A stretch of DNA of 60,119 bases from a virus (Duplodnaviria; Caudoviricetes): positions 1-60,119 of the IMG/VR virus record IMGVR_UViG_3300025132_000038; one strand, written 5' to 3'. A program made the position numbers and the translations under genes. The notes under the pieces were generated by a model. It saw only the letters and a program-made list of their open reading frames with translations. It had not been told where the DNA came from and searched no databases. Numbering within the stretch: the first letter of the stretch is position 1; each line of letters begins with the position of its first letter. Of this stretch, positions 8,415 to 59,834 are shown piece by piece.

Positions 8415-8429
8415 ATGTGATGTGTGAAT

Positions 8430-8624: not shown

Positions 8625-8627
8625 ATC

Positions 8628-11045: not shown

Positions 11046-11046
11046 A

Positions 11047-12491: not shown

Positions 12492-12493
12492 CA

Positions 12494-13456: not shown

Positions 13457-13466
13457 TAAAAATATA

Positions 13467-13661: not shown

Positions 13662-14370
13662 TTCCGATTTTCGTCCCCGTTTAAAGGGGAATAAAAAAAG
13701 AGCGTTTGAGTATTTTACAAAAAACGAAAGAAGAATCTTGGTAATAGGGGATATTCACGCCCCTTTTGTTTTAGATGGATACCTAGAGTTTTGTCAAGAA
13801 ACTTATGCTAAACATAATTGTAATCAAGTAATTTTCATAGGAGACATTTTGGATAACCATTATAGTTCTTTTCATCAGACAGACCCAAACGGTCTTGGTG
13901 GGGGACAAGAGCTTGAGCACGCTATAACAATAGTGCAAGAATGGTATCAAGCGTTTCCCGTTGCTGATGTTCTAATCGGAAATCATGACCGCATAATAAT
14001 GAGGAAGGCCGTAGATTCTGACGTTCCTAAACAATGGATAAAAAGTTACAACGAAGTTTTAGGTGTTGATTGGAATTGGACTGAAAGAATAGTTTATGAT
14101 GGTGTTCAATTCGTTCATGGAGAAGGGGGGACGGCACGTACAAAAGCAAAGAACGATATGATGTCCACTGTGCAGGGCCATATACATACCCAATGTTACA
14201 CCGAGTGGCTAGTTGGTAGAAACTTCCGAGTCTTTGGGATGCAAGTGGGATGTGGGATTGACGCTAAGTCTTACGCCGCAGCTTACGCTAAACATTTCAA
14301 AAGACAAGCTATTGGTTGTGGAGTTATCTTAGGTGGGCACACTGCTATAAATTGTTTAATGGAATTATGA
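13651..14370 (+). CDS. Calcineurin-like metallophosphoesterase
   Basis: GDIH, GDILD, GNHD, VHG, GHIH. Confidence 0.9.
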   Translation: MKFNSDFRPRLKGNKKRAFEYFTKNERRILVIGDIHAPFVLDGYLEFCQETYAKHNCNQVIFIGDILDNHYSSFHQTDPNGLGGGQELEHAITIVQEWYQAFPVADVLIGNHDRIIMRKAVDSDVPKQWIKSYNEVLGVDWNWTERIVYDGVQFVHGEGGTARTKAKNDMMSTVQGHIHTQCYTEWLVGRNFRVFGMQVGCGIDAKSYAAAYAKHFKRQAIGCGVILGGHTAINCLMEL

Positions 14371-32000: not shown

Positions 32001-34026
32001 TTCTTATTCTATTTTGAACATCACTTTTACTACATCCAATATGTACCGCATTATTTAAACTTGTAAAGGCTGTAGTAGCTCTTTTAAAAGCATCCATGTA
32101 TACAATACCCGCTTCATAACCCCTGTTACTATGTAAACTTGGAGGGGCGGAAGAAGTAGTAAACCCTGCTCTAGTATTAATCATATTAACACCCGGGTTT
32201 GGTAAAGTAAAATCACCTATTTGAAAGTAAAGATAATATGCTATACTATCGTTATTAGTATCGTTAGGTAATTGAGAATATCTAATTCCGGGAAAAACAA
32301 AAGAGATTGTGTTACCTGCTGATAATACCTGAATCCCTTCTTGAACGCCACCCACGTTTACACCATAATCAGTTTTATATAAACCCATAGTATTTACAAA
32401 AGGAGCGACGGGAGCGTTATAAGGAGATAAGGTGGTGTTAAAACCTAGGGGCATAGCACTATTAAATCGGTCAGTAAATGTTTCTCCCGTAGCACAGGTG
32501 GCCATGGGTTGCGCTCCCGCTGACCCTACTGCTGCTAAAAAATTAGGATTTACAGCCAAATCAGCTACTCCGGCAAAATCTTGAGGTAAAGTGTACTCCC
32601 ATTCTACCGTCCATTGAGTGGGAGGGGGGACGGCTGTAAAAAGAGTAGGAGCAGGGTTTGTAGCCACAGTCCCACCCTGTATTGAAAGTGCGTAGTTATA
32701 AAACTCAACGGTAAAGTTAATTGTAGACCCTGAAGTTAAATTAGTCGCTATACTACTTAAATCTACTGTAAAAACCGACTCGGGAACAGTTGCAGGACTC
32801 ACCCCCACATTATAGGTATTAGTTACCCTACCCACTGCGGCATCTAAATCCACCTCTCCAATTTGAGTATGAACAGTAGTAGCCTCATACTCTATCTTAG
32901 TAGGTATGCCGTCTGCCCCTTCTGCACTTTTTAAATCATAATTTTCTATATAATTTCCATAAACCAATCTGTTGCCCATTAAAGTTTGAGCTTGTGCAAA
33001 TCTTGGCACGTTGTCATAAAGTCTTAATATTTCTGAATCAGGTAATACGGTAAGTATTTGACTTGTGTTAAATTGTCTACTAATAAAAACGTTATCACCA
33101 TAATTACCCTCTTTAGTTATTCTCTCCATCACCTTTATTATACCATTATCATTGTCTTTCCATAATAACTCTATCCCTTTTACTAACGGACCGCCTGTTG
33201 AAAAGGTTACCGTTGCGACATTATTTTTATTTATCATCCCCTCATTTAAAAAACTTTGAGGGCTAAACGCAAATATTTTAGGTAAAAAAGCCGGAGCACT
33301 AAACTGAGAGGTTGCTGAAAATTCTCCATCTTCATACCTATATCTATAAGCAAATGAAACAAACCTTTCCTCTAAGAAATTAAACTCCTCTGACCCTGCT
33401 GTTAAAGAAACCTGAGGAGAGTTAGTAGGTGGTTTTTTAATAACTCTAATTTCTTCAGCAGAAAAATTATCACTACTCATAATAACGCCGGCAGAAATAG
33501 TGGGAGCACTATAGCCTCGGGTAACATTTATTACTCTAGGAGGATTTAAATTATCTGTCCAAAACAATAAATCATCTACTAAATTACATCCTGTTATTAA
33601 ATGTCTTTCATTAAAATTTAAAGTACTTTGCCCTGACACACCTTCTTGCACACTAATTAGGTGATATGAAACTTGACCTGTATTAGAATTGTAAGAAACT
33701 ACTAAATCTAAAATAGTAGTAAGCAGGGGAGACCCTACTCCTTGTCCTGTCCACGCAGGGTCATGCACAAACCAATAGATAGTTTCTGAAGCATCATCTG
33801 AAATAGCCCCAATACATCGTGCTGAATCGGATAAAACTGTACCATTAAAACTTAGTATAGTTATTTTAGAATTACCTTTGGTTAACTCAATAGCGCCTAT
33901 CTCAGATGCTTCTGTAGAGCCTAATCTTAAATTTTGAGCATCTATATATTCTCCTGGTGGAAGTAAACGTTCGTCTACCACCTTATTCATTTTTCCTGCC
34001 GCAAAGGTTCTTTTTATTTGTACCAT
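29065..34026 (-). CDS. Tail stabilisation (muzzle) protein, N-terminal portion with insertions
   Basis: GKMNK..DERL.P.GEY.DA.N, LFWTD..N.PR, FAYRY, GNRLVYGNY, LQEDK, YGIS.NPES, YFTD.KRG.V, GGYDPY..EY. Confidence 0.8.
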   Translation of the reverse strand: MVQIKRTFAAGKMNKVVDERLLPPGEYIDAQNLRLGSTEASEIGAIELTKGNSKITILSFNGTVLSDSARCIGAISDDASETIYWFVHDPAWTGQGVGSPLLTTILDLVVSYNSNTGQVSYHLISVQEGVSGQSTLNFNERHLITGCNLVDDLLFWTDNLNPPRVINVTRGYSAPTISAGVIMSSDNFSAEEIRVIKKPPTNSPQVSLTAGSEEFNFLEERFVSFAYRYRYEDGEFSATSQFSAPAFLPKIFAFSPQSFLNEGMINKNNVATVTFSTGGPLVKGIELLWKDNDNGIIKVMERITKEGNYGDNVFISRQFNTSQILTVLPDSEILRLYDNVPRFAQAQTLMGNRLVYGNYIENYDLKSAEGADGIPTKIEYEATTVHTQIGEVDLDAAVGRVTNTYNVGVSPATVPESVFTVDLSSIATNLTSGSTINFTVEFYNYALSIQGGTVATNPAPTLFTAVPPPTQWTVEWEYTLPQDFAGVADLAVNPNFLAAVGSAGAQPMATCATGETFTDRFNSAMPLGFNTTLSPYNAPVAPFVNTMGLYKTDYGVNVGGVQEGIQVLSAGNTISFVFPGIRYSQLPNDTNNDSIAYYLYFQIGDFTLPNPGVNMINTRAGFTTSSAPPSLHSNRGYEAGIVYMDAFKRATTAFTSLNNAVHIGCSKSDVQNRIRITIPPTQVAPWWAQSYKFVIKPSETTYETIFANIVFIEPGSADAFILLDGENARKVEDGSRLIVKSDMAGPLNSCKYITVLEKKAQDRGFIVVPLDPANPGGPSIDAPSGVYMKIKASGMDLNVPPDAITTTGWQSKTKTGNDNWPVLKLGHGAFNEWDDATATWGAPMELPAGSRVRMKIKFYRPGKWGGGGSGCERRQYDYEPNDFIVGNTYADVIDWFDSENIGDIIEQNTGYQFIGNDSQCDVSNTYIYPEANNFMALNGFGQTCVNAWQWARDGGNLIKFLIRGSNSCGNCNKCWSRVEGEITIFRAVNLLIFETMPAQGFPDLWYEGADNYDIGANGNHKSGTSPGDVNQDIAAGVSAQVLLSNFNCYAFGNGCESYTIRDSVKGDSFNLGNRVTATASQDYGRAHRYADLTYSGVYNDFSNVNKLNEFNLGLLNFKPLEDSFGPVEKLVGRKSDILVLQEDKISYVLSGKNLLSDSTGGGAVTATPTVLGTQIARLEEYGISRNPESYAEYGHEKYFTDAKRGAVIKLTGGSHSTESLEVISEYGMRSWFRDMFLAEPNDIKLGGYDPYMNEYVLNTSDILLPSDVPCINCDTTYTYQFNTNVVTFCVDFGDVVGTATIETVEIMDLITVEYDGVTVGAAGTNFLQFTKGSQNPNTATVTLQSATELTVTFVAFCVVPTPLKIRRIVLNSPQYSLPSPQRVHDQIQYVEGGYTSPVFPDNSTTPDALQNMVNSIIAPNGSFSVSLCDVESGFQGQGPFPTDTGIFSVKSTQVFATDDFVFNPTYHKLGYNRITSALLWGCSTLADINSILATATFPALNVPQTTASALTNSITAAMPAPIGVPGWADELVLIYDYRVVKEMNLCHIPTAGEDPSVVEELCCECACNAGVNTLYTLTTSATQDGGGALISVTYYDMSNILVTLSLQPGLFYSICVLGTASPPTPMVQAGYEPFVDITVDECNCNTDDVVING

Positions 34027-46114: not shown

Positions 46115-46612
46115 TTATTTCTTATAATACACACCATCTCTACCCATTGATTTTAAAAACATTACCTGAACCAATCTTGACTCCTCTCCTTTACCAAAAT
46201 TATCATATAAAGTTCTAGAGTGTTTATGGTAAGAATCAAATGCTACCAACCTATTGTATTTCATTCGAACATCACAACTTTTCGTTTCATCTTCATTATA
46301 AAAAGTTGTACCTGCATTTTCAGGAAACGTTTTATTTAAGTATAACAAAATAGTTTTATCACCCATCATTTCATCCGAATGGATATAATTTGGTTCTTCT
46401 TGTTGAAAAGGGGATTGTCTCACAAAATTATATTTAACTTGGTAATCAGGAAATAACATTAAAACAATTTTCTCTAACTCATCATTGTTTCTCACCTGTA
46501 TTCCTTTAAACACATTATCACCATCTTCTACGTCTACAAAACCTCCTTTTAATATATTTTTTACATATTGAGAAGGTTTTTTTATTATATCATCTAAAAT
46601 AATTAGTTTCAT
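46115..46612 (-). CDS. 2OG-Fe(II) oxygenase
   Basis: IHSD, LLYLN, GT.FY, YNRLV.FD...HS, R..QV.F. Confidence 0.8.
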   Translation of the reverse strand: MKLIILDDIIKKPSQYVKNILKGGFVDVEDGDNVFKGIQVRNNDELEKIVLMLFPDYQVKYNFVRQSPFQQEEPNYIHSDEMMGDKTILLYLNKTFPENAGTTFYNEDETKSCDVRMKYNRLVAFDSYHKHSRTLYDNFGKGEESRLVQVMFLKSMGRDGVYYKK

Positions 46613-47172
46613 AATTTAATAGTTATTTGATGGTCAAACATTCTATACAACTTTTTATCCTCTACTCTAAACTCATATTCGCTATCAGGAACAAAAGAAA
46701 CTTTATCACCTGGGCGTAAACCTTGAGATTTTAAATACTTATTTACGTAAACCATTTCCCCCATTAAAGGTTCATTATTAGTGTTTTTAAAAATAACACT
46801 TTCTGTTTTAGGAATAGGTTTAACAAAACAATACCTACCGTAGGTTTTCCATTCATCATTTTGTTTGTATAAAAAAAACTGCTCCATATCAACTAAAAAA
46901 CAGTTATCTTTTAAAAAGCTTTTACCACTTTTCTGTCTACCTCTCATATCATAATAATACTTAAAAACGTTGTGGTGAACCAGTAGTATATCTCCCTTTT
47001 TAATATCTCCCTTATAATTTAACGGAACTTCAATTACTTCGGCTTCTCGATTAGAAAAACTAACATCCTCTTGTGAGGTGCTAATAATAATATCCTTACC
47101 TCCAATATTTTTAGAATTATTATACCTTCTGTTTTTTACAGGAGATACTATAAATTGTGTAGGGGACTTCAT
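46609..47172 (-). CDS. GroES-like fold protein (two GroES-like repeats)
   Basis: FIVSP...A.VI.VP...IKKGD.LLVHHNVF; second FVKP...G....GL.PGDKV.F. Confidence 0.55.
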   Translation of the reverse strand: MKSPTQFIVSPVKNRRYNNSKNIGGKDIIISTSQEDVSFSNREAEVIEVPLNYKGDIKKGDILLVHHNVFKYYYDMRGRQKSGKSFLKDNCFLVDMEQFFLYKQNDEWKTYGRYCFVKPIPKTESVIFKNTNNEPLMGEMVYVNKYLKSQGLRPGDKVSFVPDSEYEFRVEDKKLYRMFDHQITIKL

Positions 47173-48927: not shown

Positions 48928-49290
48928 TTACATAAATTTCTTTAATACTAATTCTTCAACTTGCTTTTTAGCTTCCTTAATACACAACTGAAAAGTTAAA
49001 TCAGCTTCATATTTATGCACCACTTCCTTATTATAAAAAACAATAACAGTTGGTACGGAAAGTATTTTATACTCAGCAACCATATTAGGGCAATTCTCTA
49101 TGTCAATAATGTAAGTTTTTACATCCTTAAACTTAGATAAATCTACCATATTTTCTTTGTTCCAATCCGCATAAAACTCAATAACAACAATGTCTTCTTT
49201 TAAAACCGCATCTAAATCTGATTCTTGTAATGTCATTTGACCAAATGACACCATACTGATAAATAAAAAGAAGTAGAATAAATTTTTCAT
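48928..49290 (-). CDS. Secreted thioredoxin-fold protein lacking CxxC
   Basis: Signal peptide; VVIEFYADWN in place of WCxxC; YKILSVPTVIVF cis-Pro motif. Confidence 0.7.
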   Translation of the reverse strand: MKNLFYFFLFISMVSFGQMTLQESDLDAVLKEDIVVIEFYADWNKENMVDLSKFKDVKTYIIDIENCPNMVAEYKILSVPTVIVFYNKEVVHKYEADLTFQLCIKEAKKQVEELVLKKFM

Positions 49291-49577
49291 TATTTTTGTA
49301 TTACCTCATACAAACGTTCATCCATAGTGTCTAACTTCTTTTCTATAGCATCTAATGATTCTTTGTTAGATAAAACCGTTTGTCTTATTAATTCATTTTT
49401 CATATTTATTTCTCCCGCACTAGGATAGCCGTCAAATTTTTCAACCTTAACTTCTATCGCATTTACCTGACCAACTAAGTTATAATAAGTTCCCACTAAT
49501 CCCACTACCATTAAAATGAAACTTATTAAGAACTTTAAATCAGTACTTACTTTTGTGTTATTACTTATTTTAGCCAT
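49290..49577 (-). CDS. Single-TM coiled-coil membrane protein
   Basis: FLISFILMVVGLVGTYY then heptad repeats. Confidence 0.65.
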   Translation of the reverse strand: MAKISNNTKVSTDLKFLISFILMVVGLVGTYYNLVGQVNAIEVKVEKFDGYPSAGEINMKNELIRQTVLSNKESLDAIEKKLDTMDERLYEVIQK

Positions 49578-50143
49578 TTTACTTTACCATTTTGGATATA
49601 AATACTTTCAGGCTTTCTTATAACCTGACCCTTTAAATTGTAAATTAAATTAGTGTTTTCAGAATTTTTAATTATTTCTATGATTTCTGTATCACAAGGC
49701 ATACCTGTGTCACAATCAACATATTCTTCTATATATATCCACTCTGTTTCTGTTATATACAAAGTGTCTAAAATATCTTCATAAATATAAAGTGTATCTA
49801 TTTCTTCTATTACTTGTATTTCAATAATAGTATCTGTTAAATTAATATACTCTATTACATCAATATATAACGTATCACAACCAACCTCGTCTAACAAACA
49901 ATCAAATGTAGAAGTAGGAATTTGACCATCTTGCTCATCACTTGCATCTACACAATCGTCCCATCCATCTGCTATCCATGTTGTTTGCACACATCCATTA
50001 GGAGAATATTGAGTCCAATTAGACTCATCATCACCACAATAAAAACCTTGTGCCTCCGCACACTCTAAACACGCATCATTATATTCTTGTGAATACACTA
50101 ATCCGCTAAACAAAGTAAATAATAGTAATATGTATTTTTTCAT
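49565..50143 (-). CDS. Secreted acidic protein with an LDL-receptor class A-like motif and a T9SS-CTD-like tail
   Basis: Signal peptide; CV...WIADGWDDCVDASDE; DTLY repeats; IYNLKGQ...IYIQNGKV. Confidence 0.65.
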   Translation of the reverse strand: MKKYILLLFTLFSGLVYSQEYNDACLECAEAQGFYCGDDESNWTQYSPNGCVQTTWIADGWDDCVDASDEQDGQIPTSTFDCLLDEVGCDTLYIDVIEYINLTDTIIEIQVIEEIDTLYIYEDILDTLYITETEWIYIEEYVDCDTGMPCDTEIIEIIKNSENTNLIYNLKGQVIRKPESIYIQNGKVKWLK

Positions 50144-50145
50144 AC

Positions 50146-51162
50146 TTAGAAGAATAAATAGTTAAACCCAAACTTTAATTCATATACAGGCTTCATCCAA
50201 TACCTCTGGTGAGTTCCTTCTACAAAGATTCCTAAATGCTTGGTAATACGTGAACCAAACACCACTCCTGCATCCCATTCTGCCCAATCACTGTTCTCAA
50301 CTCCATATTCAAAAGAATAATCATCAAGCCCATAATGCAAAGGTAGTAAATTATACCATACATGAATCCATAGTTTTGGTGACCATTTATAGTATGAAAC
50401 ACCTAAAACAGCACTAATTTCATTTTGAGTGCCTAACTTTTCTAATTCTTGCTCATTAAAAGATGCAACTGCACCTCCAAAATAATGTTTATAAAACTCA
50501 TCATTTGATGTCGCTAACAACTCATCCCCACTAAACCAATTCCAATCTCCATTTACAAATTCTCTACTATATCCAAAATCAGCCGCTAATTCTACAAAGG
50601 TACTTTCCCCTGGAGTCCAAAAATCCTCAATAGGGTTAACCCCATACACAGGGTGATTCCTAGCAATAATTCCTGCCGTAAAATCCCATGCACCTACCTG
50701 AACACGAAACCTAGTATCGAAGGAGGTGTATTCTAAATTTACTCTTTGATTGTCTTTGTATTGTAATTTAGTAACCGTTTTATTACCGAGATAACGTAAC
50801 CAAAAATTTGCATTATTAAATGTTTCACCGCGATTACGTATAAAAGAATAATTAAGGAGATACTCCCACCCGTTAGCATTACCAACAGTAACATTGTCTG
50901 AAACAGTTCTTTCAGTACCGTAGTACCATGTTTTAACTTTATATTCATAATCAAATCTTGCTATTTTTCGGATTCCGAAAGTTAAATTATAATCATAGGG
51001 GTTGATTTCAGTAACATCTTCATAACCCCTATCTATAGCTATGTAATTCTCCCTTTCCACCATAGACGTTCCCATAGTAAAAGAAGTATATACTGTAGAA
51101 TACTTAAAGAACTGACCAAAGGAAAGTAAAGGAAGTAATAATAATATAAATAATTTCTTCAT
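50146..51162 (-). CDS. Putative outer-membrane beta-barrel protein
   Basis: Signal peptide; alternating aromatic beta strands; C-terminal KFGFNYLFF beta-signal-like end. Confidence 0.65.
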   Translation of the reverse strand: MKKLFILLLLPLLSFGQFFKYSTVYTSFTMGTSMVERENYIAIDRGYEDVTEINPYDYNLTFGIRKIARFDYEYKVKTWYYGTERTVSDNVTVGNANGWEYLLNYSFIRNRGETFNNANFWLRYLGNKTVTKLQYKDNQRVNLEYTSFDTRFRVQVGAWDFTAGIIARNHPVYGVNPIEDFWTPGESTFVELAADFGYSREFVNGDWNWFSGDELLATSNDEFYKHYFGGAVASFNEQELEKLGTQNEISAVLGVSYYKWSPKLWIHVWYNLLPLHYGLDDYSFEYGVENSDWAEWDAGVVFGSRITKHLGIFVEGTHQRYWMKPVYELKFGFNYLFF

Positions 51163-51287
51163 CTTCCTTGTCCTCTATATTGTTTCACATAATTAGTAGC
51201 TCCCTTGGAAAACGTAGACTTGCTCTTGCAGTGCCTTTTGTGTTTTGTTTTTTTGTTTGGTTGAAATCGAAATGCGTTTTTTGCCAT
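51159..51287 (-). CDS. Small basic protein, 42 aa, ending YRGQGR (not in ORF track)
   Basis: MAKNAFRFQPNKKTKHKRHCKSKS...KQYRGQGR; ATGA overlap with the downstream gene. Confidence 0.65.
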   Translation of the reverse strand: MAKNAFRFQPNKKTKHKRHCKSKSTFSKGATNYVKQYRGQGR

Positions 51288-51343
51288 GACCTATCACATA
51301 TTTTATGTTAACATTTTTTATAGTACTTGAAATCGTCCACATA

Positions 51344-51910
51344 TTAATTGTAAGCTACATATAACCGAGCTCCATTATTAGGAGGGGTAGAGCTCCCCGT
51401 TGCCGAGCTAAACACTTTAACTACTTGAACCGGAACAAGAGGTTGAGCACAATCATAATTTTGTCCGTAATTACCTACAGCTCTTATCCTACCCGTTTCA
51501 GAAGCATTATCTTCTTCATTACAAGCTCCTAAAATAAAAATATCATTCTTATGACCCGGGCCGCTCAAAAGTACTACACCGGGGTCTGGAATATTTTGAT
51601 AAATAATAACAGGCTTCCCTGCAGCAGCACTTATATTGCTTGTAAGCGTAAGTTCATTTGATTTCACTTTCGTTATAATACTTCTATTCCCTACCGCAGC
51701 ACCATCAACTCCAACCATACAAACATCACCTACTTTAATACCTAACTCCTTAAAGTTAAGAGTAGCGGTTGTTACGGTTTTTAGTATCGCGTCATAAGCG
51801 CTTGGCTGAAATGTCGTCACATAATTTCTTGGAGACGGATTAAAAGCATTGTTAAAATTGTCCCCTGAAATATCAAAGGTTGCTTTTGGATAAAACTGTT
51901 GATTCGGCAT
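51344..51910 (-). CDS. Putative virion structural protein
   Basis: NF...GIKVGD...IITKV.S..LTL domain; PVQV.KV C-terminal motif. Confidence 0.6.
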   Translation of the reverse strand: MPNQQFYPKATFDISGDNFNNAFNPSPRNYVTTFQPSAYDAILKTVTTATLNFKELGIKVGDVCMVGVDGAAVGNRSIITKVKSNELTLTSNISAAAGKPVIIYQNIPDPGVVLLSGPGHKNDIFILGACNEEDNASETGRIRAVGNYGQNYDCAQPLVPVQVVKVFSSATGSSTPPNNGARLYVAYN

Positions 51911-51924
51911 AACTTTTTTTTTAT

Positions 51925-52158
51925 TTATTTATTATAAGGGAAAATTCTGTTTAGGGAATCCTTTCGTTTACCACATCCACAATCTTTTCCTGTTGCTTTT
52001 GCTACCGCATCTACAGCTTTTTTAATACCTGTAGCTTTGGTAAATTTTTCTATTGTATCTCCCAACCCACGACTTTTCTTGTTTGATGGAACATATACAT
52101 TCTTTTTGTCATCATACCCCCTTGGTGAATGACCCATTAGTTGACTGCGGGTAGCCAT
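51925..52158 (-). CDS. Conserved small phage protein with CGC motif
   Basis: SRGLGDTIEK.TKATGIKK.V...DCGC.KRK..LN..FPY. Confidence 0.75.
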   Translation of the reverse strand: MATRSQLMGHSPRGYDDKKNVYVPSNKKSRGLGDTIEKFTKATGIKKAVDAVAKATGKDCGCGKRKDSLNRIFPYNK

Positions 52159-52161
52159 AAT

Positions 52162-52344
52162 TTAACAATTACAGTTTTTGCAGTCTTTAGCCATTTTAAA
52201 TCCTAGATTTAAAATTACCATTTTTAAACATTTTTTAGAAACATCTCCTTTTATTTCTAAAAGAGTTATTCCTCCTATTCTCCATTCTATAGCAATCTTA
52301 TCCCATTGTCTAGCATTGCTCGAAAAATAATTTATAAACTTCAT
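52162..52344 (-). CDS. Small hypothetical protein
   Basis: 60 aa; QWDK..I..R.GGIT. Confidence 0.65.
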   Translation of the reverse strand: MKFINYFSSNARQWDKIAIEWRIGGITLLEIKGDVSKKCLKMVILNLGFKMAKDCKNCNC

Positions 52345-52360
52345 ATTATATTACTTTTAG

Positions 52361-52855
52361 TTATTTTTTCATTCTCCATTTTTTCAAACCCTTTCTGTGA
52401 GTTTTAGGAACACCTGTGTGTTTTTTCTTTTTCACTCTATGTCCTTTATGAACATCAACTTGTTTTTCTGTTTGAAGATGCTTCCTGTTGTATTTAACAA
52501 CGTTTTTTTGTTTAGCATTTCCAATTTTTCTTTTCTGTTTAACTACCCTTCTTTTTCCTATAGCCCCTTCTTGTCTTCTGCTTACCTCAACTTTTTTCTC
52601 CCCACCTTTTGTTTTAACAACTTTTCTTTTACGTCCTGTTATAGGATTTTTATATCTTCTAGTAATAGTTGTTCTTCCCAGAACATCGGTTTTTTTAGTT
52701 TGTTTGTATACAGGTTTAACAGCTTTTTTAACAGCTTTCTTAACGGCTTGACCCGCTTTTTTTACTCCGGCACGCGCTTTTCTAATCGCGTTACCAACCT
52801 TACTACCTCCCGGCTTTCTTCTAAAGGATATTTTTCGTGTTCCGTATTTAGGCAT
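52361..52855 (-). CDS. Highly basic histone-H1/protamine-like protein
   Basis: About 37% K+R by hand count; AVKK repeats. Confidence 0.7.
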   Translation of the reverse strand: MPKYGTRKISFRRKPGGSKVGNAIRKARAGVKKAGQAVKKAVKKAVKPVYKQTKKTDVLGRTTITRRYKNPITGRKRKVVKTKGGEKKVEVSRRQEGAIGKRRVVKQKRKIGNAKQKNVVKYNRKHLQTEKQVDVHKGHRVKKKKHTGVPKTHRKGLKKWRMKK

Positions 52856-52863
52856 AATTTTAA

Positions 52864-53064
52864 TTATTTAGTACTACATCCAAAATTTTTGGCATAATTC
52901 GCCATCTTAACTACACTAGAGGAATACTTTTTAGTATTCTTCATTACAGCGCTAGCGGCAGAACAGGCATCTTTAAACCCGTTCCGTTTAGCCCAATCTG
53001 TAAATTTCCCCTCATTCTTTTCTTTAATTTGAGGAAATTTCTTTGTCCTTCCTTTAGTCGCCAT
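52864..53064 (-). CDS. Small basic protein
   Basis: GKFT.WAK..G...A...K.ANYAKN. Confidence 0.7.
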   Translation of the reverse strand: MATKGRTKKFPQIKEKNEGKFTDWAKRNGFKDACSAASAVMKNTKKYSSSVVKMANYAKNFGCSTK

Positions 53065-53318
53065 TATGATTTTCTCATTATTCCCGTTCTATTACTACCT
53101 GTTTGAGTTTTAAACCCATGGTGTAATTTAGCTTTTACGCTTTTAGGATAGTGCTTATCTTCTTTCATTGAATGATTTCCCTCATAAGGATGTCCATATC
53201 TTGATTTAGACATTCCTTTAGACTCATTTCTTCTTGATTTGTAAGATTGTGAGTGAGGGCCTTTATGCTTCATACCTAAAGACTCATCCAATCTGTCGTT
53301 ATAACCTTGTTTTTTCAT
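53064..53318 (-). CDS. Small basic protein
   Basis: MKKQGYNDRLDESLG...QS.KSRR.ESKG. Confidence 0.7.
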   Translation of the reverse strand: MKKQGYNDRLDESLGMKHKGPHSQSYKSRRNESKGMSKSRYGHPYEGNHSMKEDKHYPKSVKAKLHHGFKTQTGSNRTGIMRKS

Positions 53319-53341
53319 TTGTTAATTTTTAAAAATTATTA

Positions 53342-53515
53342 CTAGTATCCTGTACTTTTCATTGTTTTCTCCATGCCGTAGCCTGGGTTATTCTTTACTG
53401 AACCGTGATTCATTTTTGCAAACTCATGTGCTTGCGCTTTTCCTATGGCTGTATATGGAAAAACTTTTGTTTTCATTTTTCCTGTATCACCGCATTTATA
53501 TTTTACTGTTGGCAT
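53342..53515 (-). CDS. Small basic protein, 57 aa (not in ORF track)
   Basis: MPTVKYKC...KVFPYTAIGKAQA...; preceded by TATCTTTG at 53532-53539. Confidence 0.65.
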   Translation of the reverse strand: MPTVKYKCGDTGKMKTKVFPYTAIGKAQAHEFAKMNHGSVKNNPGYGMEKTMKSTGY

Positions 53516-53551
53516 ATTATATATTTATTTACAAAGATAATAAATTATTTA

Positions 53552-53980
53552 CTACGCTTTGTTATTATTCTTTTTCTTATCTTTCTTGTTTAAATTCTTA
53601 ACAGTATCTCTTACTGTTCTAATAGCCTTACCAAACTTACCTTTTTTAAGGCTAGAAATAGCTTCCTTACCACCACTATATATTTTATAAGCGTTAGTCT
53701 CTTTACCTTTTTTAGCTTTATCATGAATTTTTTTAATAGTTTTTCCAACTTTAGTCTTTTTGTACTTATCCACTTTTGCTTTTATTTTATCAGCAGCTTG
53801 CTCTACTCCCGTTTTACCGGTTGTCTCTTTTATATACTTTCTTGTGGCCTTTCTATTAGTTCTAGCCGTTTTCCTGTCTTCTTTAGACATTAGGTATTTA
53901 CCTTTTTTAGCCTTTCTTTCGGACCTTTTTTCAAATCGTGCTTCTTTTTTAGCACGCATTTTATCTCCAAATTTACTCAT
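53552..53980 (-). CDS. Highly basic K/R-rich protein
   Basis: 142 aa, K/R-dominated. Confidence 0.7.
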   Translation of the reverse strand: MSKFGDKMRAKKEARFEKRSERKAKKGKYLMSKEDRKTARTNRKATRKYIKETTGKTGVEQAADKIKAKVDKYKKTKVGKTIKKIHDKAKKGKETNAYKIYSGGKEAISSLKKGKFGKAIRTVRDTVKNLNKKDKKKNNNKA

Positions 53981-53992
53981 AACTTATATTTT

Positions 53993-54325
53993 TTACTTTA
54001 TTGTTGGTGAAGTGTTTAATTTTATCTGCGCTAACAACCTCTGCTTCTCTTGTCTATTCATAGGTTTTTTCCAATTCTTCATTCCTGGTAAAGTTTCATC
54101 TTTTATTTTTCTTTTTACCACTTTCTCTTTTCTTTTGTCCCACGTCCCTTTCTTTTCCATTCTAGCTTTCCGCTTAAGATTACGATTACGTTTCTTATCA
54201 CTAATATCGTAATACTCTAACCTTTTTGTAACCCTAGCTGTTTTTTTAGATTTTTTCTTTTGTTCGTTTAAAATCTTTTTAGTATTAGCTTGTTTTCTTT
54301 CCTTTACTTTGTTTACTATAGCCAT
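53993..54325 (-). CDS. Highly basic K/R-rich protein
   Basis: 110 aa; K.ARV.KR.E and DISD.K shared with 58083-58475. Confidence 0.7.
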   Translation of the reverse strand: MAIVNKVKERKQANTKKILNEQKKKSKKTARVTKRLEYYDISDKKRNRNLKRKARMEKKGTWDKRKEKVVKRKIKDETLPGMKNWKKPMNRQEKQRLLAQIKLNTSPTIK

Positions 54326-54344
54326 AGTTGTTGTTGTTTTTTAT

Positions 54345-54659
54345 TTACCTACCCATTTTTTTATCCGCCCACTTTTTATTTCTCTTATCTAGTTTGTCGT
54401 ATTTTTTAATATCCCTATCCATCTTCTTAAGAAACCTTCTCTCTGACCTAGGTAAAGATTGTAGTTCTTTTCTCTCTGTTTTTCTAGCTGTTCTTTTTTG
54501 AAGTTTATCTAACTTTTTATTACCTCTTTTAACAGACATTTTGCCGGACTCAATTTTTCCTATTATTTTTTGTCCTTTTTTCTCTTGACGAGCTTCCATT
54601 TTTTTTATCTCTGAGGTGTTGTCCCTTTTTCTTTTTAACAACTTTTTTAATATAGACAT
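54345..54659 (-). CDS. Highly basic K/R-rich protein
   Basis: 104 aa; MDRDIKKY shared with 58083-58475. Confidence 0.7.
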   Translation of the reverse strand: MSILKKLLKRKRDNTSEIKKMEARQEKKGQKIIGKIESGKMSVKRGNKKLDKLQKRTARKTERKELQSLPRSERRFLKKMDRDIKKYDKLDKRNKKWADKKMGR

Positions 54660-54681
54660 AGTAGTTTATTTTCTTTTTTTG

Positions 54682-54704
54682 TAATTTTGTACCATACAAA
54701 GTTA
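54682..54704. promoter_or_regulatory. Face-to-face -7 elements: TAATTTTG (+, 54682-54689) and TAACTTTG (-, 54697-54704)
   Basis: Lie between the divergently oriented genes starting at 54659 (-) and 54720 (+). Confidence 0.5.
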
Positions 54705-54719
54705 ATAAAATAAAATTTA

Positions 54720-55154
54720 ATGAATTTAAATTACTTAAAGTATTGGAGGGTTATAAGATATTTCGTAAAATCAAAATATAATCTTACTCAAGCTGACCTG
54801 GACATTCTTATTTTTTTGTTTGATGAAGGTTATTTTTCTAAAGATAAATTTAAGGAATTTGATGAGTTACTTAGTTGGAATGTAAATAGATTTGATAATT
54901 TACTACGCGATGGGTGGATAGAGGTTTTTAGAAAGTATGATGGTAAAAGAAAAGGGTTATACACCCTTTCATACAAAACAAATCGCTTAATTACCTCTAT
55001 ATATAATAAATTAAGTGGGGAAGAAATACCTACTAGTCCTTCAGCTAACCCTATATTTAAAAGAAAAGTGTCTTATACTGACAAAGTATATCGTAATATG
55101 ATAATAGAAATGAACCGATTTATAAAACAACAACGACATTCATTTGACGAATAA
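54720..55154 (+). CDS. Winged-helix (MarR-like) DNA-binding protein, the only + strand gene in the late region
   Basis: LTQADLDIL.FL...F...L..DGWI.V......Y.LS.K pattern. Confidence 0.65.
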   Translation: MNLNYLKYWRVIRYFVKSKYNLTQADLDILIFLFDEGYFSKDKFKEFDELLSWNVNRFDNLLRDGWIEVFRKYDGKRKGLYTLSYKTNRLITSIYNKLSGEEIPTSPSANPIFKRKVSYTDKVYRNMIIEMNRFIKQQRHSFDE

Positions 55155-55377
55155 TAGCTACTACTTCATTATTAAGTAACATAGTATGTCCTGACTGTTG
55201 GTCATAATATATCTCGTCTCCCTTTTTTATTATCTCCACATCTGTTCCCACATTTAATACTTTACCTTTTCTGTATCGAAGATTAGATGTTTCTTCTCCT
55301 GATAAAAGAAGTCCTGACTTTGTAGTTACTTCTTCATCTATGGGTTTTATTATAATATATGTTCCTATTGCTTGCAT
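55120..55377 (-). CDS. groES: Co-chaperonin GroES (Cpn10)
   Basis: IIIKP..E..TKSGLLL...GKV..VG..V..IK.GD.I.Y. Confidence 0.9.
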   Translation of the reverse strand: MQAIGTYIIIKPIDEEVTTKSGLLLSGEETSNLRYRKGKVLNVGTDVEIIKKGDEIYYDQQSGHTMLLNNEVVAIIRQMNVVVVL

Positions 55378-56987
55378 GTTGTATCGTATGAACGTGCCAT
55401 TGTAATAATAGCGTTAGTACTTAGTATTGTATTGGCAACTGATATAGCGTTACTTAAAGCGCTTACAGTAACTTTGGTAGGGTCTATTACCCCTAAATCA
55501 ATCATGTTTCCTTTTTTTTCAGTAACTACATTGTATCCTTCGCCTTTTTCAAGGTTAGATGATAAATAAACATCATTTATATTTAAGCCTGCATTTTCAA
55601 GAATTTGTTTTAATGGAGATAATAAAGATTCTAATAAAATTGCGTAAGCAATTTTTTCGGCATCAGATTTTCCACTTTTTAATTCTGAAGAAATATTCAT
55701 CAAAGCTACCCCACTACCTGGAAGTATCCCGTCTGACAAAGCAGAACGAACCGCACATACAGCATCATCTACTCTATCATATAACTCTTTTTGTTCTAAA
55801 TCAGTATTACCACCTACATATATAACTCCTACTCCGCCTGTCAATGAGGCTATACGAGATAATATAAACTCTCTATCAGCTTTTGTTTTAGCTCTTTTAT
55901 GTGCATCTTTTAATTCCCCTACTCTTACATTTAATAATTCTTGATGTTCCTCATCTTTTGGTGAACAAAGGACGACAGTGGAGTCTCTCCCAACTATCAC
56001 CTTGGACGCTCTCCCTAAATCGGAGAAGTTTATAATACTCAAATCGTCCCCTGTTTTCTCAGAAAAATACGTTGCACCTACTGACATTGCTATGTCTTGC
56101 ATAAGCTCATGTGTTTTCCAACCAAATGACGGCGGTGGTATAATACACACCTTCAATCCTCTTTTCATAACATTAGCCGCTAATGTTTGTATAACATTTT
56201 GTGAACAAGGAGCTATAATAAGAAGTTTTTTGCTTTCTTGAATAATGGGTTTTAGAATATTCTCTATGTTTAATACGTTATTTATTTCAGCATCAGATAC
56301 TAAAATGTTAACATTTTCTAATATACACTCATCTTTCTTTTGATTATTAACAAATAGATTACTTGAATAACCTCTTTCTATTTTTATTCCTTCAGTTGTT
56401 TCTGAATACGTCTCCGAGTTTTGTGACTTCTCCACAGTCACTATTCCGTTTTCTCCAACCGTATTATATGTATCTGAAATAATACTACCAACAAACTCAT
56501 CATTGTTAGCTGAAATAGTGGCAACATTATTTAAAGTACTCTTTTCCACTTTTACACTATCTTTTTTTAACCTTTCAATAATATCAATAGTATAACTAGA
56601 TAAAGCACGTATAACTTCAGTTACACTTACATTAGGGTTTTTACTTAATAGTCTTGTGGTGTTCTTTACTATAGATTCAGTTAAAACAATAGCTGTGGTA
56701 GTTCCATCACCTGCTAAAGTAGCTGTTCTTTCCGCAGCTTGTTTCATTATTCTAACTGCTAAATTTTCAACAGGGTCAAGAAGCTCAACCGATTTAGCAA
56801 CCGTAACTCCATCTTTAGTTACTGTTATACTAGCGGTATGTTCTGGTGATTCAATAAGAACTGTGTTACCTCGGGGACCGAGAGTACTTTTTACTGCGTT
56901 AGCAATTTTAGTAATTCCTTTGATTAACTTTACTCTACCTTCTGTACCGAAGTCGAGCTCCTTGGGGATATATCCTGTATTATTCAT
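55365..56987 (-). CDS. groEL: Chaperonin GroEL (Cpn60)
   Basis: TLGPRG, TKDGVTVAK, AGDGTTTA, ATISAN, GI.PG.G, GVIDP.KV. Confidence 0.95.
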   Translation of the reverse strand: MNNTGYIPKELDFGTEGRVKLIKGITKIANAVKSTLGPRGNTVLIESPEHTASITVTKDGVTVAKSVELLDPVENLAVRIMKQAAERTATLAGDGTTTAIVLTESIVKNTTRLLSKNPNVSVTEVIRALSSYTIDIIERLKKDSVKVEKSTLNNVATISANNDEFVGSIISDTYNTVGENGIVTVEKSQNSETYSETTEGIKIERGYSSNLFVNNQKKDECILENVNILVSDAEINNVLNIENILKPIIQESKKLLIIAPCSQNVIQTLAANVMKRGLKVCIIPPPSFGWKTHELMQDIAMSVGATYFSEKTGDDLSIINFSDLGRASKVIVGRDSTVVLCSPKDEEHQELLNVRVGELKDAHKRAKTKADREFILSRIASLTGGVGVIYVGGNTDLEQKELYDRVDDAVCAVRSALSDGILPGSGVALMNISSELKSGKSDAEKIAYAILLESLLSPLKQILENAGLNINDVYLSSNLEKGEGYNVVTEKKGNMIDLGVIDPTKVTVSALSNAISVANTILSTNAIITMARSYDTTCKQ

Positions 56988-57015
56988 TTAATTTAAATTT
57001 AAGTTTAATTTATTG

Positions 57016-57023
57016 CAAATATA
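57016..57023 (-). promoter_or_regulatory. Bacteroidota -7 element TATATTTG upstream of groEL
   Basis: Consensus match 28 nt before the ATG. Confidence 0.55.
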
Positions 57024-57055
57024 GGAATTATTTTCTTATACCACTAACTTTAGTT

Positions 57056-57209
57056 ATGTCAAATTTTTTTAATATTATTTATATATATATATTCTCCCTA
57101 TTATAAAAAAAAAGACTCACTATAAAAGCTTTAGTTTTTTGACATTTTCGACACTAGTTCTGATTATCAGTTAGTTAAGTACTTTAAATCGACACTAAAA
57201 CCGACACTA
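57056..57209. promoter_or_regulatory. Origin-like module B: AT-rich tract, CGACAC repeats and an IHF-consensus site
   Basis: 57140-57207 aligns without gaps to 8557-8624; TATCAG-TTAG-TTA matches WATCAR-N4-TTR. Confidence 0.6.
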
Positions 57210-57343
57210 TAATGTCAATTATCGTCATTTTCTTAACACTGAGTTAATATTAGAAGTGTTATCTTTACAGTATGAGAATAGATATAGCTCCATATTTATA
57301 TATATTAATAATGATAGTGTGCTTCTTACTTTCAATTTAGGCC

Positions 57344-57370
57344 AAAAGAAAAGGGAGCATATAGCTCCCT
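57344..57370 (-). terminator. Intrinsic terminator
   Basis: AGGGAGC-TATAT-GCTCCCT then TTTCTTTT on the minus strand. Confidence 0.75.
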
Positions 57371-57398
57371 AATCCGTGTCAAACAAAGGGGTAATGTT

Positions 57399-57659
57399 TT
57401 ATATGTCACTATACTTTAATCTGTCATTCCACATTTTGTTAGTTTTTTTAGCAAATTTTGATTGCATACTATCTTTCTTTTTGTCTGTAGGCTTTGTAAC
57501 CGTTCTTTTACCTCTAAACTTAGTTACTGTTTTTTTAAGCGTACCATCTTTGTTAAATTTCTGCTTAATCTTCACATTGTTTCGCGAGTTACTTCTTTTT
57601 ACTTTTGTTTTAATTTTCCTTCCTTTTCTTTTTATAAATGTTGCTTCTCCTTTTGCCAT
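57399..57659 (-). CDS. Highly basic K/R-rich protein
   Basis: 86 aa; K.K.K beta-like repeats. Confidence 0.65.
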   Translation of the reverse strand: MAKGEATFIKRKGRKIKTKVKRSNSRNNVKIKQKFNKDGTLKKTVTKFRGKRTVTKPTDKKKDSMQSKFAKKTNKMWNDRLKYSDI

Positions 57660-57678
57660 TGTTTTATAGTTTTATAGT

Positions 57679-58068
57679 TTATATTTCAAATATCCAATAT
57701 TCGCAGTTTTTATTACCTGCACCAGCATGATATAAAAATATATCTTGTTGTCCTGCCCATGGTAACCATCCAAATTCTCCTGTTAATAATTGAAGAAATC
57801 TTGTTCCCGCTGTTCCCGCACTACCTGCATATATAGTAGTATCTGATGTGTTATTAATATATATGTATGAAGGCTTAGGCGTTGTGCTGTCAAATATTTT
57901 ATTGTCTGTATGTAGTATTGTAACCTCAGCTACACCACTTTTAACATCCGTTCCTACAGTTGTTGCTAATGATTTGTTTAAAGATAAACCAATGCTTATA
58001 GGGCCTGTCGGAGTTGGGCCACCTGAAGGGTTAGATACAAGTTCTATTCTAGGAGTTATTGTAGCCAT
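57679..58068 (-). CDS. Putative small beta-sandwich virion protein
   Basis: YIYINN...L..GEF.WLPW...EYWIF. Confidence 0.65.
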   Translation of the reverse strand: MATITPRIELVSNPSGGPTPTGPISIGLSLNKSLATTVGTDVKSGVAEVTILHTDNKIFDSTTPKPSYIYINNTSDTTIYAGSAGTAGTRFLQLLTGEFGWLPWAGQQDIFLYHAGAGNKNCEYWIFEI

Positions 58069-58082
58069 ATCTTATTATTGTT

Positions 58083-58475
58083 TTATTTTATACTTCTTTT
58101 ATAACCTCTATTAGAACGTCTTAATCTCGACTTGTGAGCTCTATTTGCTTGTCTAGTAGCTTTATTTGCTTGTCTTGTTCTTTGATTAGTCGCTCTTTTT
58201 CTTTGTCTCGCAGCTTTATTAGACTCTCTAGTAGCTTTATTAGCAGCTCTTTTATCTTGTCTTGCGTACTTCTTAATATCTCTATCCATTATACGCAACA
58301 TTTTTCTGTCACTAATATCTCCTTTCTTTCTTGTTTTATTAGAAGCTGCTTTTCTTTCACTTCTAGCTGTAAGTTTTTCTACTCTTTTCTTAACCCTTGC
58401 CACCTTTCTAGGAGACTTAGCTGTGGTAAGCTTTTTAGTATTTCTCTTTATTCTTTTTTCTAATCTAGCTGCCAT
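58083..58475 (-). CDS. Protamine-like highly basic protein
   Basis: About 39% K+R by hand count; ANKATR repeats. Confidence 0.7.
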   Translation of the reverse strand: MAARLEKRIKRNTKKLTTAKSPRKVARVKKRVEKLTARSERKAASNKTRKKGDISDRKMLRIMDRDIKKYARQDKRAANKATRESNKAARQRKRATNQRTRQANKATRQANRAHKSRLRRSNRGYKRSIK

Positions 58476-58481
58476 ATCTTT

Positions 58482-58685
58482 TTATTTAAACATTTTTTTT
58501 AATGAAGCCATCATTGCCTCTTTCATTTCTTTTTGTTGTTCCGCTAACTCAATTCCGGCAGCAATATCTCTTACTGTATGTGAGCTTTTCATAGCTCGTC
58601 TAGCTTTAGCTGCGGTAACAAGACCCATTTCAGAGTCAGGCCTGTCATTTACTAATCGGCCATTTTTTATTCTTAATCCATCCAT
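58482..58685 (-). CDS. Hypothetical protein, first gene of the late strand (likely start 58685, MDGL)
   Basis: TATCTTTG at 58708-58715 lies inside the longer ORF call, favouring the downstream ATG. Confidence 0.65.
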   Translation of the reverse strand: MDGLRIKNGRLVNDRPDSEMGLVTAAKARRAMKSSHTVRDIAAGIELAEQQKEMKEAMMASLKKMFK

Positions 58686-58872
58686 GGTGTTATATATAAG
58701 GTTTAAGCAAAGATACAAAATTTTATTAGACATATGTAGTATTTAGGTCCCCCCCCATCCCACGTTTGGCCTACCCATATAGAAACTGATATTTTTTTAC
58801 AGAGGGGGGTCTGTTTTTTTTTTCGCTAGTCCCAATTTTTTTGAGATTTTCGAGAGCCTTTGTACCTCCGTT

Positions 58873-58969
58873 AATGTCTCCTTAAAGAGACACCGGCCAC
58901 GTTCCACCCTCTCCCCTCCCCCCTTTCCTCTCCTCTCCTCTCTCCCTTCCTCTCCTCCTCCCTTCCTTT
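58873..58969. repeat. TTAAAGAGACAC palindrome (58873-58893) followed by a 63-nt pure pyrimidine tract (58907-58969)
   Basis: Read directly; lies in the divergent intergenic region. Confidence 0.85.
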
Positions 58970-59061
58970 ATATAATAAAGCTTTAACACTTAAAGAGGGG
59001 GAAGGCCACCACTCCACGCGTTCAAATTTTAGTAAATAAATCATAGGGAATACGATTAATT

Positions 59062-59074
59062 TAATTAGTTGATT
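59062..59074 (-). promoter_or_regulatory. IHF-consensus site
   Basis: Minus strand AATCAA-CTAA-TTA. Confidence 0.35.
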
Positions 59075-59219
59075 AACAGATATAAACAATTCAGAGTTTA
59101 TAAAATGTCAAAATTTGTTTTTTATTTAGTGCAATTCCCTTGTTTTATACAAGAATTAAACGTATATTAAACTATTATTAATCAGAGGGGGAGTATAACC
59201 CCTCATAAATTTAAAAAAT

Positions 59220-59834
59220 ATGAGAAATTTATTAGAGCTAGAGACTTCAATTCTAGAAACAAACGAAACGTTAAGAAATGGCCTTAAGGTCAACGAAATT
59301 AACGAATTTCAAAACTTAATTTTTGAGAGTGGAGTTAGTAAATTCCAGTCCTCAGTTAAGATGTCAAAAATAGTCAGCAAATCTATGGAATATTTCAAGT
59401 CGCAAGAATGTCAAGAGATGTTCTCTGAGGAGGGTATTTCTTGGACAAAAGAGGAGTTTTTTATGAAACTTTACGGATGGAGAAGGGCCTACGGATACAA
59501 AATGCTAAAATTGGCCACCATTCATAGTGCCAAAATTAGAAGTTTCGTTGTTAAAATGCAGGCCCTCAGAGATAGTGGAGAAGATACTAAAGAGTCAAGT
59601 ATTTCAGTAGAAAATTGTTTAAAGTTTGTGCGAAGTGGTGGAGAAGATACCAATAACGAATCGACCACACCAAACCCGACCACCTTACAGATGACTTGTT
59701 TAATTGAGGGGGTCAAGAAAAAAGTAGTTGTTAAATTGAACGGACAAATTAAGTGCAACTTAACAGATTCAGAAATAGAGTTACAAATTGAAGTACTAAA
59801 GCAAATCATTTTAAATAATCAGGCTACGGCTTAA
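59220..59834 (+). CDS. First early gene; hypothetical, possible HTH
   Basis: 204 aa; FF..LYGW.R.Y.YKM..LA helix-turn-helix-like segment. Confidence 0.75.
   Translation: MRNLLELETSILETNETLRNGLKVNEINEFQNLIFESGVSKFQSSVKMSKIVSKSMEYFKSQECQEMFSEEGISWTKEEFFMKLYGWRRAYGYKMLKLATIHSAKIRSFVVKMQALRDSGEDTKESSISVENCLKFVRSGGEDTNNESTTPNPTTLQMTCLIEGVKKKVVVKLNGQIKCNLTDSEIELQIEVLKQIILNNQATA

Follow-up and report, generated by a model that had tools for sequence, protein, structure and literature searches.

Six extremely basic proteins are encoded around groEL-groES

We analysed the viral DNA of IMG/VR record IMGVR_UViG_3300025132_000038 over its whole length of 60,119 bases (the window), which is the complete record, with a CheckV completeness of 99% and a G+C content of about 33%. 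Its gene content identifies the window as an entire 60-kb podovirus-like genome of the group of Cellulophaga phage phi38:1 and the Flavobacterium elemo phages. With these Flavobacteriia podoviruses it shares portal, capsid and large virion proteins and Cpn10/Cpn60, and its capsid protein is 64% identical to that of uncultured MW202828, 45% to those of Flavobacterium elemo podoviruses and 40.7% to that of phi38:1. On the minus strand, on either side of groEL-groES, lie six open reading frames (ORFs 52361, 53552, 53993, 54345, 57399 and 58083, each referred to by its lowest coordinate) for proteins of 86-164 amino acids (aa) with 36.0-39.4% lysine plus arginine (K+R), isoelectric points (pI) of 10.5-12.0 and net charges of +25 to +55 each, +215 when summed. 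The six are genuine genes under selection; their products are extremely basic, the set varies among relatives and is dispensable, and the promoter type is one that structural genes also have.

When both strands of the window were searched, the six were the sole ORFs of at least 50 aa with a K+R content of at least 28%. Mean K+R in the other ORFs of at least 100 aa was 10.5% in the late arm (n=24, maximum 21.7%) and 14.5% in the early arm (n=15, maximum 21.4%). Arginine makes up 7-21% of residues, and lysine exceeds arginine in five of the six proteins, the exception being 58083 (27 R and 24 K of 130). A first-pass annotation of this DNA had described about ten extremely basic small proteins here. 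All ten ORFs are present on the minus strand, but only the six reach 36-39% K+R; the other four, at 17.5-31%, belong to separate families. It had also read shared motifs as signs of duplication. The motifs were found: MDRDIKKY in 54345 and 58083, where three codons differ synonymously; ARV.KR.E and DISD.K in 53993 and 58083; and AVKK and ANKATR repeats. By composition-corrected BLASTP, 54345 and 58083 are clear paralogues (41% identity over 80 aa, E 1e-7), 53993 and 54345 are marginal (E 0.004) and the remaining pairs are not significant, so duplication holds for one pair and doubtfully for a second.

The basic genes are under purifying selection

Relatives were gathered through GroEL, which gave 405 IMG/VR stretches; the best 80 loci were kept for comparison, and the window's proteins were compared by BLAST with the ORFs of 82 loci. 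The nearest relatives, used for orthologue comparison, were L005 and L004 (GroEL 91% and 93% identical) and L040 (partial groEL, 90% identical). The ratio of nonsynonymous to synonymous substitution rates (dN/dS), a check that the first-pass annotation had proposed, came to 0.12-0.23 at a synonymous rate (dS) of 0.68-1.37 for the three genes with orthologues in these relatives (0.12-0.23 for 52361, 0.13-0.20 for 53552 and 0.18 for 53993), and to 0.00-0.22 for flanking genes. By this measure 52361, 53552 and 53993 are under purifying selection. Orthologues of the K/R-rich proteins are 66-85% identical, whereas neighbouring proteins are mostly 76-100% identical and GroEL is 91-93% identical (L005, L004), so the K/R-rich proteins evolve faster yet remain constrained.

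An A-rich coding strand favours AAA and AAG codons, and long shadow ORFs rich in phenylalanine, leucine and serine run on the opposite strand, which would suit the idea that the K/R-rich ORFs arose by chance from the A-richness of the DNA and are untranslated. That idea is hardly credible in view of the low dN/dS at saturating synonymous change and of the reading frames, which in orthologues of 52361, 53552 and 53993 are preserved in the nearest relatives despite length differences. Of the 101 ORFs in the 80 loci that reach both 50 aa and 30% K+R, 100 share the strand of groEL. The K/R-rich genes are also tightly spaced, with A-rich leaders that resemble that of the capsid gene; genes of the window lack Shine-Dalgarno sequences and have A-rich leaders, as expected for Bacteroidota. 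For 52361, 53552 and 53993 chance frames are refuted as far as comparison of sequences can do so; 54345, 57399 and 58083 are probably coding as well, on the basis of module conservation and context.

The proteins form small, modular families

The K/R-rich proteins occur in only 1-4 of the 82 loci, partly as modules only. Orthologues of 53552 are present in L040, L005, L004 and partly L007, that of 53993 is found in L040 only (80% identity), and 57399 has partial module matches only, in L040, L005 and L004. Among 5.8 billion clustered proteins, 52361 fell into nine clusters, 58083 had one partial match, and 54345 retrieved itself and one partial match; the family profile of 52361 had five representatives in 1.84 billion proteins. 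With 58083, tblastn against phages gave no match and a scan of viral contigs found no relative, and megablast of the region's DNA against GenBank phages gave no match.

The proteins are built mosaic-fashion from short modules, which recur in proteins that differ in length and in module order. Among the modules are the N-termini M[ASP]I[LV]xK[LIV] and MS[KR][FL]G, and the segments KMEARxEKKGQKIIGKIESG, SDRKMLRIMDRDIKKY and YxNPxTGRxRxV. Each such module was present in 2-10 of the 102 distinct basic ORFs, against 0-2 of the 1299 distinct non-basic ORFs from these loci; for the two N-terminal motifs the counts are 6 of 102 versus 0 of 1299 and 10 of 102 versus 2 of 1299, respectively. The N-terminal motifs occur in subsets, and none of them unites all six proteins of the window. 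Gene 54345 begins with MSILKKL, followed by KMEARQEKKGQKIIGKIESG and MDRDIKKY. In 58083 a 54-nucleotide (nt) tandem repeat at 58137-58262 (2.3 copies, 76% matches) encodes ANKATRQ-type repeats and points to a recent internal duplication. Protein 52361 carries an AVKKAVKKAVK stretch together with the conserved non-basic motifs KPGGSKVGNAIRKAR, YKNPITGRKRKV, YNRKH and TGVPKTQR. It is not mere low complexity, because its family keeps invariant non-basic motifs (KPGGSKVGN, NPxTGRKR, YNRKH and GVPxT).

No family in the databases searched accounts for these proteins. Searches with the six found no Pfam family at E<=0.01, no NCBIfam match and nothing above noise in PHROGs, where 53552 had two weak matches to PHROGs of unknown function (E 0.0016 and 0.0042); a PDB sequence search with the 52361 and 53552 profiles and the 58083 sequence found no relevant protein at E<=1. 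As the first-pass annotation had supposed, the proteins are undescribed in the sense that nothing alike is catalogued in Pfam, PHROGs or NCBIfam. Its term 'protamine/histone-H1-like' fits in composition only. Linker histones are marked by a winged-helix globular domain (Pfam Linker_histone) flanked by lysine-rich tails, and no such H1/H5 domain appeared in the Pfam and PDB searches. Protamines and protamine-like viral core proteins are short and more than about half arginine, which the six, with their 7-21% arginine and, in five cases, an excess of lysine, are not. HU/IHF, Sac7d-type and other catalogued nucleoid proteins gave no profile match in Pfam, PHROGs or NCBIfam, and bS21, a small basic ribosomal protein known from Bacteroidota phages, gave no Ribosomal_S21 match in Pfam or NCBIfam. 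A literature search, within the collection covered, for tailed-phage proteins that are packaged and protamine-like or highly basic listed no paper whose title or abstract opening describes such a cluster.

AlphaFold (AF2) predicted a helix followed by beta-hairpins for 52361, with a mean predicted local distance difference test score (pLDDT) of 62, and, for 53552, six helices that form no compact fold (pLDDT 73.6, predicted template modelling score 0.32). A Foldseek comparison of the 52361 model with the PDB gave a best E of 0.18 and a template modelling score of ~0.2, which is meaningless at this pLDDT. In the ESM Atlas 53552 matched unnamed viral clusters only (<=0.79), and 52361 had no usable match.

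The basic genes occupy hypervariable slots in a conserved gene frame

The conserved gene order begins with a homologue of 59220 on the other strand, slot A, 58482, (57679), groEL and groES. It continues with a homologue of 54720 on the other strand, slot B, 53342, 53064, 52864, (52361), 52162, 51925, 51344, 51159 and 50146, and leads on to lysis (Table 1). The three genes at the downstream border of slot B, 53342, 53064 and 52864, are present in 31, 44 and 27 of the 82 loci, have dN/dS values of 0.00-0.21 and form separate families. The regulator-like 54720 has a weak winged-helix match of the SarA/MarR type (TIGR01889, E 7.8e-4), below the cut-off.

Table 1. Genes and control elements of the window. 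Genes bear the number of their lowest coordinate.
Feature	Position	Strand	Basis or remark
K/R-rich protein 52361, 164 aa, 37.2% K+R, pI 11.9, net +55	52361..52855	-	composition
K/R-rich protein 53552, 142 aa, 36.6% K+R, net +37	53552..53980	-	composition
K/R-rich protein 53993, 110 aa, 36.4% K+R, net +29	53993..54325	-	composition
K/R-rich protein 54345, 104 aa, 39.4% K+R, net +27	54345..54659	-	composition
K/R-rich protein 57399, 86 aa, 36.0% K+R, net +25	57399..57659	-	composition
K/R-rich protein 58083, 130 aa, 39.2% K+R (24 K, 27 R), net +42	58083..58475	-	composition
-7 box TATCTTTG for operon 58482-58083-57679-57399	58708..58715	-	pattern scan
58482, conserved 67-aa frame marker, moderately basic, true start Met17 of listed ORF	58482..58685	-	63/82 loci; dN/dS 0.02-0.06
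57679, non-basic, 129 aa (5.4% K+R), between two K/R-rich genes	57679..58068	-	L005 orthologue 85% identical, dN/dS 0.14
Intrinsic-terminator-like hairpin and T run, ends first operon after 57399	57352..57370	-	
groEL/groES own box TATATTTG	57016-57023	-	pattern scan
groEL	55365-56987	-	Pfam Cpn60_TCP1 2.7e-58; PHROGs
groES	55120-55377	-	Pfam Cpn10 2.7e-09; PHROGs
54720, regulator-like, marks upstream border of slot B	54720..55154	+	phrog_17028 1.9e-13; phi38:1 gp78 homologue (BLASTP E 1e-10)
Overlapping face-to-face -7 boxes, TAATTTTG (+, for 54720) and TAACTTTG (-, for 54345 operon)	54682..54704	both	
-7 box TATCTTTG for operon starting at 53342	53532..53539	-	pattern scan
53342 (57 aa, 17.5% K+R), 53064 (84 aa, 23.8%), 52864 (66 aa, 24.2%)	52864..53515	-	downstream border of slot B
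52162 (60 aa), 51925 (77 aa, Cys motif, 71/82 loci), 51344 (188 aa), 51159 (42 aa, 31.0% K+R)	51159..52344	-	small genes of the conserved frame
groEL-groES, small-gene cluster, holin, endolysin, large terminase, P22-like portal, capsid, very large virion proteins	58733 down to 14781	-	
Recombination/replication arm	59220 to end, then 1-14370	+	Sak-like annealing protein, exonuclease, primase/helicase, helicase, phosphoesterase

Close relatives carry K/R-rich genes in no fewer than five intergenic positions; in L005 and L006 such a gene precedes 58482, and in L040 one lies between groES and 54720. In the 71 loci with both borders, slot B measures 15-3344 nt and contains no K/R-rich ORF in 29 loci, one in 25 and two to six in 17. 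No K/R-rich ORF at all was found in 29 of 80 loci, some of which are short fragments. Because positions and presence vary in this way among relatives, the K/R-rich genes are accessory and turn over quickly. The family expansion that the first-pass annotation had foreseen is borne out by the 0-6 basic genes in slot B, although the families themselves are tiny or near-orphan. Metagenome contigs from four DNA runs agree with the locus comparison, though they are weak evidence, being aligned at 85% likeness and thus below 95%. In two runs (X4 and X5) the stretch 53546-54735, with the three slot-B genes, is replaced by 33 other letters, and 58075-58481, with gene 58083, is skipped (side of 35 letters); a further variant is longer by 464 letters, which stand between 55114 and 55119.

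Genes that turn over rapidly, are present in some relatives and absent from others, and insert at several intergenic sites are also what would be expected of accessory counter-defence or host-interface effectors that act on host proteins or the envelope, for example as cationic helices aiding envelope disruption at lysis or entry, with nucleic acid binding incidental. The short conserved linear modules could then be protein-binding motifs, and the lysis cassette follows the last gene of the cluster at a distance of ~2-3 kb. We consider such effectors improbable nonetheless. The K/R-rich proteins lack transmembrane and signal segments, hydrophobic residues make up only 26-28% of them, and their genes are not adjacent to holin or endolysin. 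To our knowledge, known lysis peptides also fall far short of a net charge of +25 to +55 in 86-164 aa.

Several neighbouring features were seen alongside. The non-basic 188-aa protein encoded at 51344-51910 on the minus strand is ~31% identical to its L040 and L005 counterparts, with flanking genes at 75-93%, and in other relatives unrelated ORFs of 180-290 aa take its place. It marks a second hypervariable position, possibly for a surface or receptor-binding protein; comparison with the phi38:1 structural protein gp77 found no similarity. Before the lysis cassette, at 48928-51287 on the minus strand, lies a run of genes whose products have hydrophobic, signal-peptide-like N-termini (judged by eye only): 50146 (338 aa), 49565 (192 aa, acidic and cysteine-rich) and 48928 (thioredoxin), plus the small membrane-type 49290. 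The conserved basic ORF 51159 precedes this run and overlaps the start of 50146 by 4 nt. In MW202828 (L001), the annotated coding sequences upstream of groEL at 6759-8026 are rich in cysteine, arginine and valine and resemble miscalled frames in a G+C-rich insert; within the stretch examined there is no highly K/R-rich ORF. Further down the structural arm, 46609-47172 on the minus strand encodes a second, long GroES-like protein (187 aa, phrog_13932) with no Pfam Cpn10 match. It lies upstream of the large terminase gene with the gene 46115-46612 between them; in elemo phages the GroES-like gene stands directly beside terminase. The last gene of the structural arm is a 2868-aa ORF (14781-23387, minus strand) with no Pfam or PHROG match.

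The basic genes and the structural arm have a promoter box in common

As had been claimed, several of the genes follow promoters: Bacteroidetes-type TAnnTTTG boxes precede 58482, groEL, 54345 and 53342. The box at 58708 lies upstream of the true start of 58482, since orthologues of 58482 begin at Met17. The form TA(A/T)CTTTG is common to the K/R-rich operons and to seven boxes at structural-arm genes (48056, 43645, 41125, 37664, 36436, 36044 and 26766), and the box TATATTTG is common to groEL and the early gene at 1438. The box of 54345 faces that of 54720 at a distance of seven bases, and across loci the two are separated by 0-9 bases (TAnnTTTG ... YAAAnnTA). This face-to-face pair was found in 63 of 78 related loci, compared with 0.25 per 78 in shuffles. 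Its arrangement suggests a promoter switch, with mutually exclusive transcription of 54720 and the slot-B operon.

Between the two arms, the divergent intergenic region 58740-59220 contains a polypyrimidine tract of ~65 nt (~58905-58968), a run of eight C (58750-58757) and three copies of AGAGGGGG spaced ~190 nt apart, in a genome of 33% G+C. Conceivable roles for it are origin, packaging site and control element.

The position of the K/R-rich genes, promoter-proximal in the minus arm and near both this divergent region and the 'early-like' TATATTTG box of groEL, makes middle rather than late expression possible. Middle expression would favour proteins that stay in the infected cell and bind nucleic acid there, by charge and short specific motifs; they could coat or condense replicated phage DNA ahead of packaging, act on the host nucleoid by compacting or displacing it, or attach to RNA or ribosomes. 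Such proteins would agree equally with the data on composition and selection, and dispensability suits accessory genes of host takeover. The non-basic motifs and predicted beta-hairpins of 52361 recall extended RNA- or DNA-binding proteins, and 53552 is predicted to form long helices without a compact fold. Against this stand the genes' own promoter boxes, which match the structural-gene type and not the groEL/early type, and the structural label given to small K/R-rich proteins in the same slot of phi38:1. On balance we regard a purely intracellular role as rather unlikely, though well worth keeping in view.

A possible place for the basic proteins in the virion

We tentatively favour, at a probability of about 0.4, the reading that the six are facultative polycationic DNA-binding proteins that are packaged with the genome and co-injected, resembling the T4 internal proteins in function; DNA binding, packaging and injection are here inferred rather than observed. 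As lineage-specific, fast-evolving, modular polycations they would bind nucleic acid. Made together with the virion proteins, they would be loaded into the capsid with the 60-kb genome and neutralise part of the DNA charge, and after injection with the DNA they could coat or protect it or act on the host at entry. Their function would be akin to that of T4 internal proteins and podovirus cargo or ejection proteins, without homology.

The K/R-rich genes lie on the arm with the lysis, terminase, portal, capsid and tail genes, where PHROG matches to virion structural proteins are found, and their hypervariability fits proteins at the host interface. On a rough scale, neutralising 10% of ~120,000 phosphates would take ~330 molecules of mean charge +36, or ~5 MDa, which is within the range reported for internal or cargo protein in T4 and crAss001. 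In GenBank, the label 'structural protein' is attached to phi38:1 gp69 and gp80 and to the gp80 homologues in phi40:1 and Calle_1-3. Passages of PMC5335546 report that phi38:1 was examined by structural proteomics.

Several points weigh on the other side. The 29 of 71 relatives without a K/R-rich gene in slot B argue against an essential 'virion chromatin', and together with the 29 of 80 loci lacking any such ORF they mean that the proteins are not an essential packaging component. The TA(A/T)CTTTG form is also the general Bacteroidetes consensus, which leaves the timing of expression unsettled. The GenBank note on the gp69 and gp80 genes reads like a template, and comparison of gp69 and gp80 with the six window proteins found no sequence similarity, so that they are analogues by composition and position only. 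The head genes had no PHROG or Pfam match to a prohead protease, the kind of enzyme by which a T4-type targeting sequence could be processed; a 377-aa gene between portal and capsid is without an assigned family. Finally, the N-termini that some of the proteins have in common could stem simply from recent duplication.

The usual view is that DNA in tailed phages is condensed by small cations and polyamines, with few internal proteins. Further-reaching, and in our judgement decidedly unlikely, is the idea that a widespread group of marine tailed phages packages DNA with a variable cocktail of polycations, a facultative 'phage chromatin' that tunes condensation and ejection pressure, stays on the DNA as it enters the cell and shields it there from nucleases. 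On this view rapid shuffling of modules would be the mark of an arms race with host defences, and the face-to-face promoter switch would time production. The K/R-rich proteins, common but facultative in an abundant group of marine Bacteroidota phages, would be a new candidate class of capsid-internal, DNA-coating or co-injected proteins. Such a class could bear on packaging physics, on protection from restriction or CRISPR at entry, and on the possible blindness of tryptic virion proteomics to polycations. Proteins that are not packaged would still make up an unexplored, fast-evolving family of phage polycations. The cultured relatives phi38:1, Calle and the elemo phages allow direct testing.

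Comparison with known systems

Chlamydia Hc1 and Pseudomonas AlgP are bacterial histone-H1-like proteins with lysine/alanine repeats. Protein 52361 resembles them in its lysine/alanine/valine repeat stretch, but repeats cover a short part of this one window protein, and no Pfam or NCBIfam family was matched. Adenovirus VII and baculovirus P6.9, DNA-condensing core proteins of eukaryotic viruses, are also virus-encoded and very basic; they are described as protamine-like and as bound to the genome in the virion. Unlike the window proteins, which have no Pfam match, they are arginine-rich and essential and belong to unrelated non-tailed viruses.

A parallel in the host group is crAss001, a Bacteroidota podovirus with a muzzle protein, which according to passages of PMC10172136 stores ~5.5 MDa of cargo protein in capsid and tail, to be ejected. 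Its cargo proteins are of 60-277 kDa and are not called polycationic in those passages. The window phage has a muzzle-like N-terminal domain: the first ~240 residues of a 1653-aa virion protein (29065-34026, minus strand) match Crassvirus muzzle PF25731 at 29.1 bits (cut-off 27), a hint that tail tips in the phi38:1/elemo group may be crAss-like.

Within its own phage group, the window is best compared with phi38:1, whose small K/R-rich proteins gp69 and gp80 (28-34% K+R) are also encoded before lysis and structural genes. They are less basic than the window's six, and there are only two. The first, 28% K+R as annotated, is encoded further upstream; gp80, 91 aa from its first methionine and 34% K+R, lies two genes after gp78, the 54720 homologue, and thus at the position of slot B. 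An elemo phage has a homologue of gp80, gp48. In phi38:1 groEL belongs to the replication arm, at a remove from the slot of the basic proteins, and gp80 stays near the 54720 homologue. We therefore rejected a functional link of the K/R-rich proteins to GroEL/ES, and the association with groEL-groES in the first-pass annotation reduces to one of position.

The nearest functional model is provided by the internal proteins IPI, IPII and IPIII of T4. Passages of PMC3012670 and PMC7697877 place ~1000-1370 subunits within the packaged DNA, with lysine-phosphate contacts, and describe the proteins as dispensable, injected with the DNA and highly diverse except for a short N-terminal targeting sequence. 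The window proteins have no sequence similarity to them and a far denser charge (36-39% K+R), and the podovirus-like window phage has a P22-like portal. Hypervariability and dispensability are features that the window set has in common with the T4 internal proteins. In T4-type internal proteins a capsid-targeting sequence of ~10 N-terminal residues recurs in members that are otherwise unrelated; among the basic ORFs, N-terminal motifs recur in subsets.

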